A stretch of DNA of 64,000 bases from Verrucomicrobiota bacterium (GTDB lineage Bacteria; Verrucomicrobiota; Verrucomicrobiia; Limisphaerales; AAA164-E04): contig CP170459.1 in assembly GCA_047947115.1 (NCBI GenBank), positions 3,264,001 to 3,328,000 of the forward strand. The letters are read 5' to 3'. A model generated the notes under the pieces. That model saw nothing but the letters and a program-made list of their open reading frames with translations. It did not search any database and had not been told where the DNA came from. Below are positions 18,248 through 49,278 of the stretch, in pieces (the stretch's first letter is position 1; each line of letters opens with the position of its first letter). The position numbers were made by a program, and so were the translations under genes.

Positions 18248-19534
18248 ATGATCAGGATTATGAGTGTTCTGAGGAATAGATTTTGCATGGAAGTGATGAA
18301 CCTCACATGCCTGCTTTTGATGACATCAGGTGTGTGCAGAGTTTTTGCACAGGAGGAAATACCCTGGTCAGCCAGACATGATCTGATCGAGCAGCTTTCC
18401 AAGAGACCTGGATTCAATTACGATGAATCCAAAGTGCCCGAGTATGTTCTTCCTGATCCATTGATTGCCGAAGATGGAACCCCTGTTTTGAGCGCGCGTC
18501 AGTGGAATGAATCACGCCGTCAGGAAATCCTGAATCTGTTTCGGGATCAGGTATATGGTCGACGTCCGACCACAGAGTATCAACTGACATTCGAGCAGAC
18601 AGCCGAAGAGAACGACGCACTCGAAGGAAAAGCGATCGGACGTAGCATGATTGCGAAAGTTTCAATACGGAATCGCTCTTTCTCATGGCCCTTTGTCCTG
18701 TTTCTGCCCAAGAAAACCAAAGAGCCGGTGCCAGCCATCATTCTCATCAACAATCGATACTTCATTCCGTTGGACAAGGCAGCCAAGGAGCATGATCCTT
18801 TCTGGTCCGTCAAGCAGATCATTGACCGGGGATATGCAACCGCATCCTTTCACACATCCGATGTCGATCCTGACAGAAAAGAAGGTTATGGCGAGGGTAT
18901 ACGATCCTTTTTTGCGGATGGCACTCCACCTGAAGACAACGCCTGGCGCAGTCTCTCCGCCTGGGGCTGGGCAGCAAGCAGGGTTTTGGATTACATGGAA
19001 ACCGTGGATGCGATCGATGCCGGACGCGTCGCGGTTGTCGGACATTCCCGTGGGGGGAAAACATCTCTTTGGGCTGCGGCCGAGGATGCTCGTTTTGCCA
19101 TCGCTTACAGCAATAATTCCGGCTGTGGCGGTGCGGCTCTTTCACGAAGAGCTTACGGAGAGACGGTCGCTATCATTACCAGAGGCTTCCCTCATTGGTT
19201 CTGTCCGCCATTTGCGGCGTTTGGCGGAAAAGAATCTGAACTGCCTGTAGATCAACACCAATTGATTGCGCTGATTGCTCCGCGAGGCGTTTACGTTACC
19301 AGCGCGGACGAAGATCTCTGGGCGGATCCGAAAGGTGAATACAGTTCCATTGTCGCGGCGTCTCCGGTCTTTCGCCTGTTGGACAAAACTTCGATTATCG
19401 AACCGCAAATGCCCTCATTGAATTCACCCAGAGTTTCAGGGCAAACCGGATATCACATACGAACCGGCGAACATAATCTGAAGGACCAGGACTGGACTTG
19501 GTTTCTGGACTATGCAGACGGTTTGCTTAAATAG
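18248..19534 (+). CDS. CE15 family glucuronoyl esterase-like alpha/beta hydrolase
   Basis: NYDESKVPEY.LPDPL, AWGWAASR.LD, GHSRGGK nucleophile motif, SGCGG, LPVDQH.L.ALIAPR. Confidence 0.9.
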   Translation: MIRIMSVLRNRFCMEVMNLTCLLLMTSGVCRVFAQEEIPWSARHDLIEQLSKRPGFNYDESKVPEYVLPDPLIAEDGTPVLSARQWNESRRQEILNLFRDQVYGRRPTTEYQLTFEQTAEENDALEGKAIGRSMIAKVSIRNRSFSWPFVLFLPKKTKEPVPAIILINNRYFIPLDKAAKEHDPFWSVKQIIDRGYATASFHTSDVDPDRKEGYGEGIRSFFADGTPPEDNAWRSLSAWGWAASRVLDYMETVDAIDAGRVAVVGHSRGGKTSLWAAAEDARFAIAYSNNSGCGGAALSRRAYGETVAIITRGFPHWFCPPFAAFGGKESELPVDQHQLIALIAPRGVYVTSADEDLWADPKGEYSSIVAASPVFRLLDKTSIIEPQMPSLNSPRVSGQTGYHIRTGEHNLKDQDWTWFLDYADGLLK

Positions 19535-19900
19535 CATTGTTTCGGCCATTATTGGAAAACTGCGAGTGTTGATCTTGCCAATGCTTTCTTCATTTCGAGG
19601 GGCAATTTGGAATGATTCTCGGAAACCCGCAAACCATCAATGAACAAGGCGTCACCATCGTGCCCTTCGACGTTCGATGACTCGAGAGCGACAACGTTTA
19701 TATTCAGGCCAAAGACCTGCTCCCGGAAGGCATGAACCATGCATTCATCGAACAAAGGAAGGAGACATTCCATGATAAATCTTCCTGACACATACAAGAC
19801 GAACGGTCGGGAACATTTCCAGGCGCAGATTTGGGAGCCTGTTTTCCAGTATGCAAATTCTGAACAGCAGCGGTGACATTTCCAATTGGAATAAAAAGGT

Positions 19901-19915
19901 TGCGATATACTCTCA
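19901..19915. promoter_or_regulatory. Putative Fur/Zur-family operator overlapping the promoter of the RAPP leader
   Basis: TGCGA-TATAC-TCTCA, a 15-bp imperfect palindrome of the TGAGA-N5-TCTCA type, 25 bp upstream of ATG 19941; overlaps a TTGCGA -35-like hexamer. Confidence 0.45.
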
Positions 19916-19940
19916 GATGCATTAACTCCTATTTCAGAAA

Positions 19941-20309
19941 ATGAAATCCGTTCGCCACATCATCACTTTTTGGATGACAGCGAGTATCCTCGTTGCAGGA
20001 TTCCTCGCTCGTAGTGAGCAGTTTCATTCGTGGCTCCACGAGGGGGAGGAACATTGTCACGTCGAAGCATCCCATTGCCAAGATAAAGGACAAACGGGCC
20101 ACCACCACGAGGGTGAAAAAACGGAAGAACACCCGCATGGCCTTCTGACCTTGATGGCTGGAGCAGCCATGGAAAGTTCTTTTGTTCCGTGCGTCTGTCC
20201 CGAACCTGTTTTTTCTCAATACTCCTTTGTTGCCTGGAATCTCCAGGAAATTCCATGCGTTCGAACATGGAAGGCGACCCAGGGTCGCGCCCCTCCCATT
20301 CTTTCCTGA
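19941..20309 (+). CDS. His-rich secreted leader peptide with C-terminal RAPP arrest motif (DUF2946/CruR-like)
   Basis: Signal-like N-terminus; His cluster FHSWLHEGEEHCHVEASHC...GHHHEGEKTEEHPH; ends QGRAPPILS*. Confidence 0.8.
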   Translation: MKSVRHIITFWMTASILVAGFLARSEQFHSWLHEGEEHCHVEASHCQDKGQTGHHHEGEKTEEHPHGLLTLMAGAAMESSFVPCVCPEPVFSQYSFVAWNLQEIPCVRTWKATQGRAPPILS

Positions 20310-20417
20310 TCCTTTCTCTTATTTTTCGAACCAAGGCGTTTCACTTGTGGACAAACATGCTTTCCTGCGAAGCATGCCCTTTGGAATGCCGCTCATTAAA
20401 TCTTTTATATTATTGTT

Positions 20418-21179
20418 ATGTCAGAATCCTGTGAGCCCCCTCAAGTTGGCGCCAGGTTGCGTGGTATCCATCATTTTGGGTTCACGTTGATTGAATTGCT
20501 GGTGGTGATCGCCATCATAGGCTTGTTGGCATCGATGCTTTTTCCGGCTCTGGGAAAAGCTTCGGCAAAAGCCAAACAGGTCCGGTGTGCTTCGAATATG
20601 AGGCAGATCGGTCTCGGTATATCCATGTATGCCGATGACTTTGACGGTAAACTACCCCAAACAGCTCATGAAACGTTGAGCACCAATAAAATTTGGATAC
20701 GCCAGATTCACTCTTATGTGGGAAATTCAGACGACATCCGCCTTTGCCCGGCGGATCCGACCCGTATGGACCGTCGTGAGAGTGGTGGAACAAGTTATAT
20801 TTTGAACGATTTCATTTCGTTGCCGATCGTGGATTCTTTCGGACAGGTTCTAGTGCCTGTCCCAAAACTGGATCAACTGCGGCAACCTTCGGAAAGCATC
20901 CTTCTTTTTGAAGTGGCGGATGAATATGGGCCATCGATATTTTCCGATCACACCCACTCCCGCGCCTGGCTGAGAAGCGGCTGGGAAGGTGTGGTGTCGG
21001 ACATTCAACCCGATCGACATCGGGGAGGTGCTCCCAACGAGGATCGCACCAAGGGCAGGGCTAATTACCTGTTTGTGGATGGTCATGTTGAGTCCATCGA
21101 TGCAGCCGATTTGAAACGCCAGTTCGATCAAGGTATCAACTTCGCGCAACCACCTGAATTCCGCCAGCCTGTGCCATAG
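20418..21179 (+). CDS. Prepilin-type N-terminal cleavage/methylation protein with H-X9-DG-type C-terminal motif
   Basis: GFTLIELLVVIAIIGLLASML.PAL, CASNMRQIG, LCPAD, DHTH, RH...ANYLFVDGH. Confidence 0.92.
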   Translation: MSESCEPPQVGARLRGIHHFGFTLIELLVVIAIIGLLASMLFPALGKASAKAKQVRCASNMRQIGLGISMYADDFDGKLPQTAHETLSTNKIWIRQIHSYVGNSDDIRLCPADPTRMDRRESGGTSYILNDFISLPIVDSFGQVLVPVPKLDQLRQPSESILLFEVADEYGPSIFSDHTHSRAWLRSGWEGVVSDIQPDRHRGGAPNEDRTKGRANYLFVDGHVESIDAADLKRQFDQGINFAQPPEFRQPVP

Positions 21180-21320
21180 GATTGTTTGACGACTCATCAC
21201 GTTTTCGAACCTGGATCATTTTTATCATGTGTCATCCACGACGGCTCTTTGTGCCCGGTATGGGGTTGGCAATCTTTCATCAAAATCAATTTTAAACTTT
21301 TATTTTGCTCATTTCTTTCA

Positions 21321-24300
21321 ATGAAACGATTTGTTTTTAAAAATCTTATCCTGCCTGTATGGGGCATGGTGGCAATGGCGGCATTCGCCGGTGAACGACA
21401 AATGTGGACAGATGGTCATGGTGATCTCCAAGTCGGATACCAAGGCGGTGAATGGAACTGGGGAGTATGGACAGGCAACGAGGTGGATGAAGTCATCATC
21501 GCGCTGGATCACTCTTCAAAGGCCTTGATTCCCGACCATCCTAATTTTGAATTTCTGGGTGCGGTGGATGATCCGGTCTGGATTGCTCCTCAAGTTGACA
21601 AACAAGGTGTGGTGTTTCTTGGTGCAAACACTTCTTCCACACCACAAGGAACGTTCGTTGGCAATCGAATTGATTTGAAACTGACAAGTGTCCGGGGACC
21701 AGGTGATTTCTTCGTGTGGACCACGGGCGGTGCTGGTTCGGTCGAAGTCCCCATGAATTCACGTGACGGCATTGATGCAAAGGATGTCATCAACGCACCG
21801 GCTCCCGGACATTGGCATCAGAACTGGGGGTTCAGTTCTCCCGGAACCTACCTTGTGGGATTCACGGCTGAAGGAAGGCTCGCTGGACAATCCAGTGTCA
21901 TCACCAGTGAAGAGGAAGTTTATCGGTTTGCGGTCAATGTTTTTGACCGGGGTGAACTGGACTTGGAAGTCGCCTATGAAGACGGTGAATGGGAATTGGT
22001 TCTACTGGATGAAGCAAACGAGATGGAAATAGAGGCAGGTGAAGCCGCATTGCACGCAAGTCCCGGTACCTGGCAAGCGGTGCCATCCGATCCTGCTTAC
22101 GGTTTTCTTGGACGTCCTGGAGACAGTATCCACATCCTTCCACAGGAGGAAAAGGAAGGAATCTTGTTTTTAGGGATTGCCGGTGACGAGATTGAAGCAG
22201 GTGTTTTTGAGAATGATCAGGTATCTCTCAATCTGGCATCCGTGGACGGACCCGGCGCTGTTTATCTTTATTCGACCGATTCATTTGGAACTCCAACCAA
22301 GTACTTTGATTCCGGCGACGGCATCTCCGAATCGGATCAGTTTCCGGTAAGCGTTGGTGGGCATTCTCACCAGAACTGGGCTTTTTCAGCTCCTGGTATC
22401 TACCGTGTCGGACTGAACGCCTCAGGCGTGTTGACGGACGGTACACCTACCAGGAGTGAAGATACGGTTTTTCTATTTGAGGTATTCGGCCCCACCATTA
22501 TCGGAGAAGGGGAACTTGATCTCGAAGTCGCCTATGAAAACGGCGAATGGGAACTGGTGGGGTTGGACGAAGCCAATGAACGGGAGATTTTTGCCGATGA
22601 GTTGGTGATTTTAGGCACGGATGCCTCGAAGGTGGTCGTTCCGGAGGATCCAGCCTTTGGATTCCTGGGGGCTCCTGGTGACTCGGTCAACGTGCTGCCT
22701 CAGGAAGAAAAAGAAGGCGTTTTGTTCCTGGGGATCGCCGGAGATGAAATTGAAGCAGGTGTGTTCGAGAACGACTTGGTCGGACTCAATCTTTCCAGCG
22801 TGGACGGACCTGGAGCCGTGTATCTCTATTCAACAGACGCCTTTGGTTCACCTACCGTATATTTTGATTCTGCCAATGGAATCAGCGAAGAAGACGTATT
22901 TCCGGTGAGCGTGGGGGGACACTCTCATCAGAACTGGGGTTTTACACAACCAGGTGTTTACCGGGTTGGATTGCAGGCTTCCGGTCAACTGGCTGGATCA
23001 GCTGATACACCCCAGAGTGATGTCGCGGTGTTTACATTTCATATTCAGTCCGATGGAGGCTCCCCGGCTATGCCTTCCGTTTTCGCAGACGGTGAAATTG
23101 ATCTTGAAGTCGCTTTTGAGGAGGGTGAATTCGAACTTGTCCTGCTCGACGAGGTCAACGAACGAGAAATAGAGGCTGCCGATGGTCTTTTGACGTGTGT
23201 GGCTGCCACATTGGAACCTGTCCCGAATGATACTTCCTTTGGCTTCCTTGGCAATCCGGGTGATCGAATCTTCGTCCTGCCACAAGACGAGCAGGAAGGA
23301 GTTCTGTTCCTGGGAATTGCCGGTGATGAAATTCCTGCCGGTGAATTCCTGGACGATTCGGTCGGGTTGAATCTGGTGGAGGTTGACGGGCCTGGAAATG
23401 TGTTTCTTTATTCGACGGATGAATTCGGAATCCCGATGAAATATTACGATTCCGCCGATGGTATCACTTCAGAGGACCTGTTCCCGGTCAGTGTGGGCGG
23501 TCATTCACATCAAAACTGGGGATTCTCAGCCGCCGGTCATTATGAAGTCAAACTCCAAGCCTCAGGTGTGAAAGCCGCTAATGGTGAAACCGTCACCAGC
23601 GAGGCCGTATCCTTCTTCTTCGAAGTGATCGAACCTGAGGTCTTCAATGCCGGTGAATTGGATATGGAAGTCGTCTATGAAGATGGCGAATGGGAGCTGG
23701 CATTGCTGGATGAAGCCAACGAACGCGAAGTGGAACCGAACGAGGCACTGCTTCAAGGAGCACGAGGAACAAGGCAAACCGTCCCTGGAAATCCCGACTT
23801 CAGCTTCCTGGGTGAAGCCGGAAATGTCGTCTGGGTGTTGCCTCAGGACGAAACCGAAGGTGTTCTGTTTCTCGGGATTGCCGGAGACGAAATAGCATCC
23901 GGCGTTTTTGAGAATGACTCCGTGGATCTCCAACTCGTTGGGGTGCGCGGACCCGGTGATGTTTGTCTTTACGCGGTGGATGCATTTGGATCGCCACAGG
24001 TGTTCTTCAACTCCGGTGATGGTTTTGATGAAACCGACTCTTTTCCTGTAAGCGTCGGTGGGCATTCACATCAAAATTGGGGATTCACAGCTCCTGGTGT
24101 CTACAAGGTATCACTGCAGGCTTCCGGGACCTTGACGGGAGCCGCGAACCCGATCCAAAGCGAAGTGGTGGAGTTTACTTTCGAACTGCTTTCGGAAGCC
24201 CCATCCATGCTGACGGTTTCACGAACGGAAGATCAAAGCATCCTGATTCAATGGCCTTCCGTAGCAGGTTTGAATTATCAGCTTCAATCCATTCCATCAT

Positions 24301-24437
24301 TTGGAGACGGAGACTGGGTGAATGATGGAGATGTCATCCCGGGAACCGGCGAACCCATCGTCATGGAAGCGCCGATCAACAGCGAGGTGGCCTCCCGATT
24401 TTACCGGTTGATGATGGTTCAAAACAACAATCCTTAA
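21321..24437 (+). CDS. Large secreted acidic protein with five His-motif repeats (choice-of-anchor M / TIGR03769-like) and a C-terminal verrucomicrobial-type domain
   Basis: ATG at 21321 gives signal peptide MKRFVFK...AAFA; five roughly 180-aa repeats each end GH[SW]HQNWxF...GxY; C-terminus YQLQ...W...SRFYRL. Confidence 0.85.
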   Translation: MKRFVFKNLILPVWGMVAMAAFAGERQMWTDGHGDLQVGYQGGEWNWGVWTGNEVDEVIIALDHSSKALIPDHPNFEFLGAVDDPVWIAPQVDKQGVVFLGANTSSTPQGTFVGNRIDLKLTSVRGPGDFFVWTTGGAGSVEVPMNSRDGIDAKDVINAPAPGHWHQNWGFSSPGTYLVGFTAEGRLAGQSSVITSEEEVYRFAVNVFDRGELDLEVAYEDGEWELVLLDEANEMEIEAGEAALHASPGTWQAVPSDPAYGFLGRPGDSIHILPQEEKEGILFLGIAGDEIEAGVFENDQVSLNLASVDGPGAVYLYSTDSFGTPTKYFDSGDGISESDQFPVSVGGHSHQNWAFSAPGIYRVGLNASGVLTDGTPTRSEDTVFLFEVFGPTIIGEGELDLEVAYENGEWELVGLDEANEREIFADELVILGTDASKVVVPEDPAFGFLGAPGDSVNVLPQEEKEGVLFLGIAGDEIEAGVFENDLVGLNLSSVDGPGAVYLYSTDAFGSPTVYFDSANGISEEDVFPVSVGGHSHQNWGFTQPGVYRVGLQASGQLAGSADTPQSDVAVFTFHIQSDGGSPAMPSVFADGEIDLEVAFEEGEFELVLLDEVNEREIEAADGLLTCVAATLEPVPNDTSFGFLGNPGDRIFVLPQDEQEGVLFLGIAGDEIPAGEFLDDSVGLNLVEVDGPGNVFLYSTDEFGIPMKYYDSADGITSEDLFPVSVGGHSHQNWGFSAAGHYEVKLQASGVKAANGETVTSEAVSFFFEVIEPEVFNAGELDMEVVYEDGEWELALLDEANEREVEPNEALLQGARGTRQTVPGNPDFSFLGEAGNVVWVLPQDETEGVLFLGIAGDEIASGVFENDSVDLQLVGVRGPGDVCLYAVDAFGSPQVFFNSGDGFDETDSFPVSVGGHSHQNWGFTAPGVYKVSLQASGTLTGAANPIQSEVVEFTFELLSEAPSMLTVSRTEDQSILIQWPSVAGLNYQLQSIPSFGDGDWVNDGDVIPGTGEPIVMEAPINSEVASRFYRLMMVQNNNP

Positions 24438-24452
24438 TAGTTGCTTGGGATC

Positions 24453-24497
24453 GCATAGCGGCGCTCCAGCGCTTGTGCGTTTTGAGCGCCGCTATGC
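24453..24497. terminator. Strong hairpin between convergent genes (probable terminator)
   Basis: Perfect 14-bp inverted repeat GCATAGCGGCGCTC / GAGCGCCGCTATGC. Confidence 0.65.
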
Positions 24498-24607: not shown

Positions 24608-24994
24608 CTAAACCAAGACGGGAGGAGCGCGGGAAGGAGTCGAAGTGCGGAAGCGTTTTGTCTCGATCAGGTTGACCGTGAGTGAGGTTAGTTCAGTAAA
24701 ATGGAAGGATTCTCAACAAACTTTGACAGGCTCGATTTTAAGATCAACTCCCGATTGACAGAAGGGTTGCAGTGGATCTGGCGCTTTGGGTGTCTGATCG
24801 TTTGATGTGTGACCGCTTTCCTCCTCTTCACAAGCAGTACATACATGCTGTTAAACACACTGAACTTCCTCGCCACAAATCCAATGATGGAACGCATGAC
24901 TCCCAGCTCCAAGCGATACCAACCATACAAGCGCAATCACCATCAATGCTGACAGGATTTGGTGGATTCCGGTGGTGCGGAGATATTGCCTCAA
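24608..24994 (-). pseudogene. Second DUF2946-like CxxC/RAPP leader interrupted by two in-frame stops
   Basis: One frame reads ...[49 protein letters not shown]...KVC*ESF...TSTPSRAPPVLV*; stops at 24851-53 (TAA) and 24713-15 (TGA); start is TTG 24994 or ATG 24943. Confidence 0.65.
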
Positions 24995-25282
24995 CGGGGT
25001 GTATGCATTATCCCCGACATTTTTCTGAATGCTGGAGGTGTCACCGTCTCCCACTTCGAATGGCCGAAGAACCGTGCCGGTGTCAGTTTTGACAGCATGA
25101 TTTCCTGCCTCCGAAGGCAAGAATGATCAGCCATTGCTTATATATCACCGAGTATGGGGGGCATAGTTCATTGCAGATGCTGGCCGGAATCCTTCGCATT
25201 GTTTCAGGGGTTTGTTGATTTGTTCTGATGCTCATCTTTGAAGTTGATTCTTGAGCCTGATCGTGAAGAATTTCGTCAAATT

Positions 25283-49189: not shown

Positions 49190-49278
49190 TGGTACCGGTG
49201 GTCGGACTCGAACCGACACGAGGTTTAACCCTCCCAAGATTTTAAGTCTTGTGCGTCTGCCAATTTCGCCACACCGGC
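49190..49278 (-). tRNA. tRNA-Leu (anticodon TAA)
   Basis: GCCGGTG acceptor stem, TGGCGAAATTGGCAGACGC D arm, CAAGA-CTTAAAA-TCTTG anticodon arm, long variable arm, GGTTCGAGTCC, encoded CCA. Confidence 0.97.

Follow-up and report, generated by a model that had tools for sequence, protein, structure and literature searches.

We analyzed a 64-kb window (the whole stretch of DNA considered here; positions are window coordinates) of the genome of an aquatic Verrucomicrobium, designated G000. In this window, three co-oriented open reading frames (ORFs) on the forward strand form a unit encoding a histidine-rich leader peptide with a C-terminal RAPP motif (19941-20309), a prepilin-like protein (20418-21179), and a secreted protein built of choice-of-anchor M (CAM) domains (21321-24437). 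Sequence comparison with related loci leads us to favor, by a modest preference and with confounding by lineage, the reading that this is a zinc-scavenging unit, in which the five-domain secreted protein would capture zinc and the prepilin, characterized by a DHxH motif, would carry zinc across the outer membrane in the place of the receptor ZnuD. The module is composed of known kinds of parts and is conserved; a prepilin that probably stands in ZnuD's place is its new and testable twist.

This reading is carried by the distribution of the pilin and of ZnuD-like receptors. Seventy-four genomes were chosen for the presence of a CAM protein alone (all 70 CAM genomes of a class sample of 401 genomes and 4 from a phylum sample of 251 genomes) and scored genome-wide for the pilin and the receptor, with at most 43 and 14 candidates per genome. 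The pilin alone was found in 57 genomes, a ZnuD-like receptor alone in 15, both in one, and neither in one (Fisher's test, 1.4e-13 by genome and 3.2e-4 by family, kin not being independent). The 72 CAM loci were divided as follows: (i) 53 lack a receptor and have the pilin at a distance of up to 3 kb, (ii) 13 have a receptor within 5 kb and no pilin, (iii) none has both, and (iv) six have neither, the latter being contig edges, one spurious match, the second locus of one genome, and one locus with a pilin just outside the fetched stretch. Where both flanks reach at least 3 kb, the respective counts are 39, 12, 0, and 2. Among the 251 phylum genomes, the pilin occurs in 8, all of which have a CAM protein (adjacent in 7), and a CAM protein occurs in 15; TonB receptors were found at those CAM loci that lack the pilin. 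A ZnuD-like receptor is present in 26 of these 251 genomes vs 15 of the 16 CAM genomes without the pilin.

The best family of the receptors is ZnuD (NF038289) in 14 of 14 cases, and their best solved relative is ZnuD as well (PDB 4RDR, E 6e-111). The first receptor scores 235.7 bits against the NF038289 cut-off of 950; thus, these proteins are called ZnuD-like. Such a receptor was not found in G000, where the best TonB-dependent receptor (TBDR) reaches 80.8 bits compared to 514-1088 for orthologues; this genome has four or five other TBDR matches. In other Verrucomicrobiota, the counterpart of Neisseria ZnuD fills the same slot beside the CAM gene, under the same operator and in one case (L137) under the same type of leader; neither the sequence nor the fold of ZnuD is related to that of the pilin. 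A complementary distribution within a single slot classically indicates non-orthologous replacement, and the pilin therefore most likely supplies the outer-membrane step. A preliminary description, made from the DNA sequence of the window alone, had guessed that the prepilin-like protein is the uptake component, and this guess gains support from the near-complete exclusion. Both types occur within one family, f31, in which G490 has the receptor and G163 and G460 have the pilin together with 10 and 17 other TBDRs; in the window's own order, G540 and G451 have a multi-repeat CAM protein and the receptor but no pilin. The genomes with at least five TBDRs comprise 8 with the pilin, 14 with the receptor, 1 with both, and 1 with neither, and the 8 pilin-type genomes, with 5-17 TBDRs each, lack the ZnuD-like receptor.

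The layout of the unit in the window is as follows.

19892..19925, forward strand: promoter-like region, an A-tract plus TTGCGA at 19900-19905 (-35-like), putatively the promoter; the operator here is decayed
19941..20309, forward strand: RAPP leader (upstream ORF), 122 aa, with 11 His and the C-terminus RAPP-ILS
20289..20417, forward strand: leader end and 108-nt spacer, pyrimidine-rich with C exceeding G; possible, weakly indicated Rho loading region
20418..21179, forward strand: prepilin-like protein of 253 aa (H-X9-DG type, DHxH subfamily), with a class III signal (G before FTLIE, G codon at 20478) and the motif DHTH
21321..24437, forward strand: secreted CAM protein, 1038 aa, with a signal peptide, five choice-of-anchor M domains, and a C-terminal domain of about 80 aa ending in FYRL
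24453..24497, forward strand: hairpin closing the unit, -38.4 kcal/mol, z-score -3.86; putative terminator, poor in U-tract
24608..24964, reverse strand: remnant of another RAPP leader, interrupted by in-frame stops at 24853 and 24715, convergent on the hairpin

The three ORFs stand where the preliminary description had placed its histidine-rich RAPP peptide, DHTH prepilin, and 1038-aa protein with five GHxHQNW motifs. The closing hairpin is as strong as it was said to be: none of 200 shuffled sequences was equally stable, and G000 has a single copy. A TonB receptor or an ABC transporter was also correctly reported as missing, none being recognized by eye among the ORFs at 12-32 kb, with a family scan that covered the two flanking genes. 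The argument built on the absence of an ABC transporter does not hold, given that znuA is found within 8 kb of 13 of 79 related loci and that G000 encodes inner-membrane importers elsewhere, namely two ZnuA-family proteins, an ABC-3 set, and a His-rich ZIP protein.

These 79 loci (from the best 80 of 325) were obtained by a scan of GTDB with patterns lacking DHxH and belong to Verrucomicrobiota, Planctomycetota, and Armatimonadota; the closest named loci are from Verrucomicrobiota, several of them labelled Limisphaerales. A protein search gave matches in 27 of 41 related genomes and in 20 of 21 within the family, in some of them via a sister paralogue. At the 79 loci, we observed genes for CAM proteins (67), the leader (38), Fur-family regulators (19), ZnuA (13), COG0523 proteins (10, one of them over the ZigA cut-off), ZnuB (9), and HisI paralogues (5). 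Two cultured strains, Verrucomicrobium sp. BvORR034 and BvORR106, have the pilin-CAM pair with znuA nearby. ZigA, HisI paralogues, and znuABC mark zinc-starvation regulons, and these neighbors, together with the Fur-family genes, support the metal scavenging, probably of zinc, that had been proposed for the unit; the expected synteny across Verrucomicrobiota is likewise borne out by the conserved gene order. The pilin would replace the outer-membrane step rather than the ABC transporter. In the literature searched, which included few subscription papers and no supplements, we found no description of the pilin-CAM unit, its operator, or a zinc RAPP leader.

The window prepilin scores above the cut-offs (in brackets) of TIGR02532 with 30 bits (16.3), TIGR04294 with 20.7 (19), and PF07596/DUF1559 with 24.8 (23.3), and has both the N-terminal cleavage/methylation motif and the C-terminal H-X9-DG motif of the H-X9-DG prepilin-like proteins. 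The DHxH motif is present in only 2 of the 92 prepilin ORFs of G000, whereas [DE]HxH is found in 136 of 150 homologues gathered without that filter. H84 is kept in 69 of 79 pilins, in an alignment whose DHxH columns are invariant by selection. From this conservation, H84, D177, H178, and H180 are candidate metal ligands. The AlphaFold2 model of the pilin head has a predicted local distance difference test score (pLDDT) of 96.6 and a long N-terminal helix (an earlier model from 15 sequences had a pLDDT of 40). A Foldseek search of the PDB with the head gave nothing at E<=0.001 and only weak matches to the type IVb pilin CofA (E 1.7-2.4, TM-score about 0.25). By sequence, the pilin has no solved relative and is far below the cut-offs of the GspG and PilA equivalog models; its ESM Atlas matches are only generic prepilin/DUF1559 clusters. 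The machinery required for a filament is encoded in G000: a prepilin peptidase, 2 PilT proteins, 10 ATPases of the PilB/GspE/PilT family, and about 8 secretins.

Pili that serve the acquisition of a substrate are not without precedent, since competence pili serve DNA uptake. In Verrucomicrobiota, a pilus locus of Akkermansiaceae, MUL2 of Akkermansia, is linked to glycan acquisition (PMC13174399, accessible part). As described there, MUL2 is proposed for glycan attachment and has assembly genes of its own, whereas the H-X9-DG prepilin of the window stands alone, has a candidate metal site, and would depend on machines in trans.

Two other functions of the pilin have to be weighed against outer-membrane transport. 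The pilin could be a type II secretion pseudopilin, that is, a dedicated adaptor for export or display of the CAM protein, with zinc entering by another route. The strict dependence of the pilin on the CAM protein (8/8 genomes), an in-frame fusion of the two (P0089), and the several GspE-like ATPases and secretins of G000 agree with this function, as does the position of G000 prepilins beside proteins with the C-terminal domain or PEP-CTERM (7 of 79 vs 2.0 expected, p 0.0025); however, the remaining 72 of the 79 have no such neighbor. Receptor-type CAM proteins also need export, yet no such pilin is present in their genomes; the partners end in either PEP-CTERM or a FYRL-type domain; and the exclusion with ZnuD would be left unexplained. 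We thus consider the adaptor function unlikely.

Less probable still is a pilin that never polymerizes and acts as a periplasmic metal binder anchored in the inner membrane, feeding ZnuABC or ZIP with zinc that crosses the outer membrane passively via a porin. The class III cleavage signal is kept throughout the pilins, the gene excluded by the pilin encodes an outer-membrane receptor, and the loci with ZnuA show that the pilin does not replace the binding protein. The match to DUF1559, whose Pfam short name is SBP_bac_10, the frequent co-location of znuABC, and the lack of a solved pilin matching the head at E<=0.001 would fit such a binder, and so would a gene for a His-rich porin-like protein in 5 of the 79 loci, although that gene is also found at receptor-type loci.

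The porin-like protein (L099:6939-8309 and four other loci) is encoded upstream of znuA in pilin-type loci and has no match in Pfam or NCBIfam. Its gene is also present at L136 and L168, and in L050 and L073 it is preceded by a RAPP leader of its own; the Bifidobacterium label of L073 is probably a misbinning, given that L073 groups with Verrucomicrobiota.

The partner of the pilin is a member of the choice-of-anchor M/TIGR03769 anchored-repeat family by curated hidden Markov model (HMM) cut-offs. It scores 597 bits with NF038134 (cut-off 55) and 184 bits with TIGR03769 (cut-off 30.9), each in five stretches, and 422 bits with TIGR03773 (cut-off 190.3); with TIGR03772, it is just below the cut-off (344.6 vs 350.45). 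The five GHxHQNW motifs are located at residues 163, 347, 533, 727, and 914. The N-terminal half of the HxD/HxH motif, HxD, is present in repeat 1 only (GHGD), whereas repeats 2-5 have GELD or GEID, i.e., ExD/HxH, a change common to 32 later repeats of relatives. Identity is 33-40% between repeat 1 and the others and 56-70% among repeats 2-5. Compared by sequence with solved structures, the CAM repeat gave one chance match only (E 0.26).

Proteins of the same HMM families in C. diphtheriae, ZnuE, ZnuF, ZnuG, CmrA, and CmrA2 (TIGR03769/TIGR03773/NF038134), are likewise exported and have a variable number of domains with HxD and HxH about 150 aa apart (PMC12445094, accessible part). The setting is zinc-regulated there and probably also here: the family is Zur-repressed and zinc-linked in Corynebacterium, the HxD/HxH proteins of C. 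diphtheriae bind zinc, and ZnuE is required for uptake, while the part of the motif in binding was left open (PMC12445094). By homology to ZnuE/F/G, the CAM domains of the window protein are predicted to bind zinc via HxD/HxH, or ExD/HxH in repeats 2-5. As far as the C. diphtheriae proteins are described in that part of the source, the window protein differs from them in its Gram-negative host, in its five copies, four of which have E for the first His, in a FYRL-type domain (PEP-CTERM in many relatives) instead of a sortase or membrane anchor, in the pilin as a partner, and in an ABC transporter that is unlinked in G000. A Gram-negative parallel is ZepA, a PEP-CTERM exoprotein of Anabaena that scavenges zinc and is encoded near Fur-family, COG0523, ZnuA, and TonB-dependent transporter (TBDT) genes; its delivery route is unknown, and an outer-membrane receptor has been proposed (PMC10957091). 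The likeness to ZepA is by description, not by sequence comparison, and neither a pilin nor TIGR03769 was found mentioned in the accessible text on ZepA (PMC10957091).

The CAM proteins of relatives end alternately in PEP-CTERM or the FYRL-type domain, and the latter is a candidate sorting signal. In the window, this domain of about 70-80 aa occupies 24195-24434 and ends in F[FY]R; it occurs on 24 proteins of G000, including the CAM protein and other large ones, and has no match in Pfam.

Another metal than zinc, namely Ni, Co, Mn, Fe, or Cu, might be served by the same architecture. Sites rich in His are promiscuous, Fur models rather than Zur models give the best scores for the adjacent Fur-family proteins, one locus (L143) adjoins a FeoB-like gene, a sister clade of pilins is found beside genes for copper-type YtkA and an MbnH-like protein, and the characterized DUF2946 leaders sense copper (PMC9426467, accessible part). 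Nevertheless, we regard another metal as quite improbable: ZigA above its cut-off, ZnuA/ZnuB, and the HisI paralogue are nearby, the alternative partner is ZnuD-like, the CAM family is linked to zinc in Corynebacterium, and the leader has lost the copper-type CxxC.

The 12 loci without a CAM gene comprise 7 of the sister clade (support 100), 3 paralogues beside COG0523 genes (2 of them also beside MerC), and 2 contig edges. The sister clade has no leader and no operator, and three of its members have YtkA and MbnH-like neighbors. One sister locus is found in G000 itself (G000:C1:418369-423048); there, as in L063, L066, and L072, the genes after the DHxH pilin encode a protein of 720-750 aa, YtkA, and a di-haem enzyme resembling MbnH. 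This locus may be the copper counterpart of the putative zinc unit.

Several observations weigh against a zinc importer built on the pilin. (i) All CAM proteins encoded next to a receptor group together in one clade (support 99), and the receptor module may thus have a single origin, leaving few independent contrasts (7 families have it). (ii) The pilin-type genomes are poor in TBDRs (median 1 vs 11, with at least one in 44 of 57), a background that by itself lowers the chance of a ZnuD. (iii) G588 has both pilin and receptor, and the G211 locus combines a divergent EHIH pilin with an unrelated TBDR; its CAM protein was missed by the profile, and the locus was therefore left out of the 72. (iv) Three paralogous pilins (L030, L032, and L033) and the 7-member sister clade have no CAM neighbor, and one pilin locus, L143, adjoins a FeoB-like gene. 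(v) Of the 53 pilin loci across the class, only about 8 have the leader. (vi) PilT, present in 74 of 74 CAM genomes, is permissive and not discriminating. (vii) His-to-Ala mutants of the C. diphtheriae proteins still shifted with zinc (PMC12445094, accessible part). The extreme conclusion from the first two points, that the pattern merely reflects lineage, with a ZnuD-CAM block gained in TBDR-rich lineages and, in TBDR-poor ones, an inherited pilin-CAM block that does something else (adhesion, for example), would agree with the single CAM clade, the tenfold difference in TBDR number between the types, and the concentration of 24 of the 26 ZnuD-like genes of the phylum sample in two families, but is very improbable in view of the mixed family f31, the two receptor-type genomes in the window's order, the eight TBDR-rich pilin-type genomes without the receptor, and the presence of at least one of the two genes in 73 of 74 CAM genomes.

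Returning to the putative zinc-scavenging unit, we further analyzed its leader. The ratio of nonsynonymous to synonymous substitution rates (dN/dS) is 0.06-0.15 in 4 of 6 pairwise comparisons (dS being saturated in the other 2), and the leader is thus a real gene under purifying selection. It has a weak N-terminal hydrophobic segment, H29, a His-rich linker with H64-P-H66 at 51 and 49 residues from RAPP, and RAPP itself (116-119) three residues before the stop; it is the sole credible RAPP upstream ORF among the 13 RAPP-ending ORFs of G000. In 39 leaders, for which RAPP was the selection criterion, H29, R116, P118, and P119 (R-x-PP) never vary, and at least 90% of the leaders retain a Cys. In 18 of 20 fetched loci, a RAPP or RGPP leader lies 145-266 nt before the pilin cleavage motif; of the other two, one is an RSPP variant and one is broken.

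The preliminary description had compared the leader with CruR of Bordetella (bp2923) and CutF of Rhodobacter, and the general likeness is upheld: these are also first genes with an export-like N-terminus, RAPP three residues from the end, a long spacer (108 nt in the window), and metal ligands about 45-50 residues before RAPP (PMC9426467, accessible part). The assignment of the leader to DUF2946 is not: of the HMMs suggested as checks, TIGR03769, TIGR02532, and TIGR04294 gave the expected matches, whereas PF11162 gave none with the window leader at E<=0.1, and no other Pfam or NCBIfam model did. Among the related leaders, 9 of 39 match PF11162 at E<=0.1 (best 7e-6). A CxxC ending 44-46 residues before RAPP (45 in CruR) is present in 6 of 40 leaders, and most have a single Cys. 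The window leader has no Cys 35-60 residues before RAPP but His at 49, 51, 59, and 60; throughout the window's genus, the CxxC position is devoid of Cys, with His at 49 and 51 instead. Unlike CruR as described in the accessible text, the window leader has HPH near the position of the CruR ligands and, following its hydrophobic segment, an invariant His, and it heads a zinc-type operon with a pilin gene next, whereas CruR heads a copper operon with a TBDT gene next. We consider it a candidate for a zinc counterpart of the arrest peptides that sense copper.

In Bordetella, stalling of CruR at RAPP without copper shields the operon from Rho (PMC9426467); CutF acts in the opposite sense, via a PPP motif (bioRxiv 10.1101/2025.02.05.636593, accessible part). 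The CruR logic, and not that of CutF, is suggested for the window by the nature of the unit, which is predicted to serve uptake. Table S1 of the CruR paper lists a few Planctomycetes homologues (PMC9426467, accessible part). Rho is present in G000, which has two Rho-like genes (G000:C1:4133302 and 5683551); one of these exceeds the TIGR00767 cut-off, and the other falls slightly short of it. C exceeds G over the last 40 nt of 39 of 40 leaders, partly owing to Pro codons, and just past the stop in 33 of 40, but this bias is unspecific, being seen after the stops of 64 of 92 pilins too; the leader-pilin spacer has no significant fold (z-score -0.64). In L041 (G011), the leader-pilin pair is tandemly duplicated, and each copy has its own operator-like site.

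The Fur/Zur-like palindrome that the preliminary description placed at 19901 was rejected: no 15-27-nt stretch of 19881-19945 reaches 70% self-complementarity. An operator was found in the relatives instead. Motif sampling upstream of 38 leaders gave AnTGCAAAnnnTTTGCAnT, with 21 sites scoring 17.7-27.2 bits. This operator, TGCAAA-n3-TTTGCA, sits just behind an A-tract and TTGCNN, and the rejected box begins in that hexamer; inspection by eye of 20 orthologous upstream regions showed the A-tract and TTGCNN in 13. Motif 3 of the ZepA study (PMC10957091) may be identical with this operator. With the training sites counted, 31 of 70 upstream stretches reached 17 bits or more, vs 1 of 39 controls, and the operator is present at 6 of 13 receptor-type loci, which are outside the training set. 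In four relatives with an adjacent Fur-family gene, it scores 21.5-23.6 bits. The window site scores 0.2 bits, and 24,634 positions of G000 score equally or better; in the window's genus, the CAM-linked copy lacks the operator in 7 of 7 genomes (best 8.3 bits). Nor is the operator enriched upstream of G000 metal genes (12 candidates, best 1.0-8.3 bits). No match to the locus-linked Fur-family regulator was found in G000 at E<=1e-8; two other Fur-family genes are present, and one of them may control the unit.

In the pilin tree (a quick tree, with L083_11976 on a very long branch), the window clade is nested among operator-bearing relatives. The relic leader at 24608-24964 is 44% identical over 115 aa to the leaders of L032 and L033 (E 4e-35) and is the remnant of a Fur-linked paralogous locus. 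From this nesting and the relic, the two tiers of control, repressor and leader, appear to be ancestral, whereas in G000, because of the decayed site and the missing cognate regulator, control is probably by the leader only. The two-tier control proposed for the window is thus found in relatives that retain both parts. A connection between operator loss and a leader richer in His (all 7 members of the genus have 9-11 His, compared to 5-11 for the four Fur-linked leaders) was considered and is suggestive only, concerning one clade.

Metatranscriptomic contigs of related strains depart from the reference at 24608-24611, the stop codon of the relic, suggesting a rearrangement junction. A fragment of a Glu/Leu/Phe/Val dehydrogenase (24956-25123, forward strand; PF00208, E 2.8e-9) stands in place of the relic's 5' end.

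Combining these parts, we propose the following course of zinc uptake: (i) the CAM protein would capture zinc outside the cell; (ii) the prepilin, cut between G and F, would enter one of the type IV filament machines of the genome as a minor subunit; (iii) exposed through a secretin, it would be loaded with zinc at H84/D177/H178/H180; and (iv) PilT would pull the pilin back, and zinc would be handed to the ZnuA-family/ABC-3 or ZIP importers encoded elsewhere. When zinc is scarce, the leader would stall at RAPP and transcription would run on; zinc bound by the nascent histidines would release the stall and Rho would terminate, as for CruR, the ancestral repressor tier having presumably been lost in G000. 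As a more tentative generalization, which we regard as possible rather than probable, bacteria of the Planctomycetes-Verrucomicrobia-Chlamydiae (PVC) group might have a TonB-independent import in which interchangeable H-X9-DG prepilins are the substrate-specific heads of a retractile type IV filament; the DHxH member would be the zinc head and would receive its zinc from the CAM protein at the surface. Its control in this genus would lie solely with a ribosome-stalling leader that senses zinc by its histidines.

Prepilin-like genes of the H-X9-DG/DUF1559 kind number in the tens to hundreds in Verrucomicrobiota and Planctomycetota, with 92 prepilin ORFs in G000, and have no known purpose. One subfamily as a genetic alternative to a zinc TonB receptor would give this family a concrete and testable role, nutrient entry via a type IV filament. 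Under the generalization above, the orphan prepilins, of which a genome has dozens, would amount to a set of importers on a par with the TonB receptors; in rough counts over the 74 genomes, with kin not independent, the numbers per Mb of prepilin candidates and of TBDRs show an anticorrelation (Spearman -0.42). The same route offers an answer to how exported zinc scavengers deliver the metal in cells without a receptor.

The upstream neighbor of the unit (18248-19534, forward strand) encodes a glucuronoyl esterase-like hydrolase and is not conserved beside the unit, and a tRNA (49193-49278, reverse strand) is the sole match in an Rfam scan of the window. Estuary metatranscriptome contigs from four runs span the leader and the pilin, one of them extending into the CAM gene; the flanking genes are covered too, and these contigs reveal presence only, without level, strand, or single-transcript information.

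Some variants of the pilin were observed in relatives. P0089 is a single sequence that fuses CAM, PEP-CTERM, and prepilin in frame, possibly by a lost stop; the basic tail of PEP-CTERM would double as the prepilin leader. This fusion speaks for the zinc-uptake reading as well as for an export adaptor. A family of about 200-270 aa, with a motif like QMxxWGxDxxHxxGNLL and without a Pfam match, is found near 8 of the 79 loci (L077:1033-1830, L084, L087, L091, L093, L097, L099, and L104) and is fused to the pilin in P0020. Finally, L053 (8565-9299) and L061 (8560-9294) encode a tandem pilin paralogue in which SACVACS, with a CxxC, replaces DHTHS, which hints at a retuned metal specificity.

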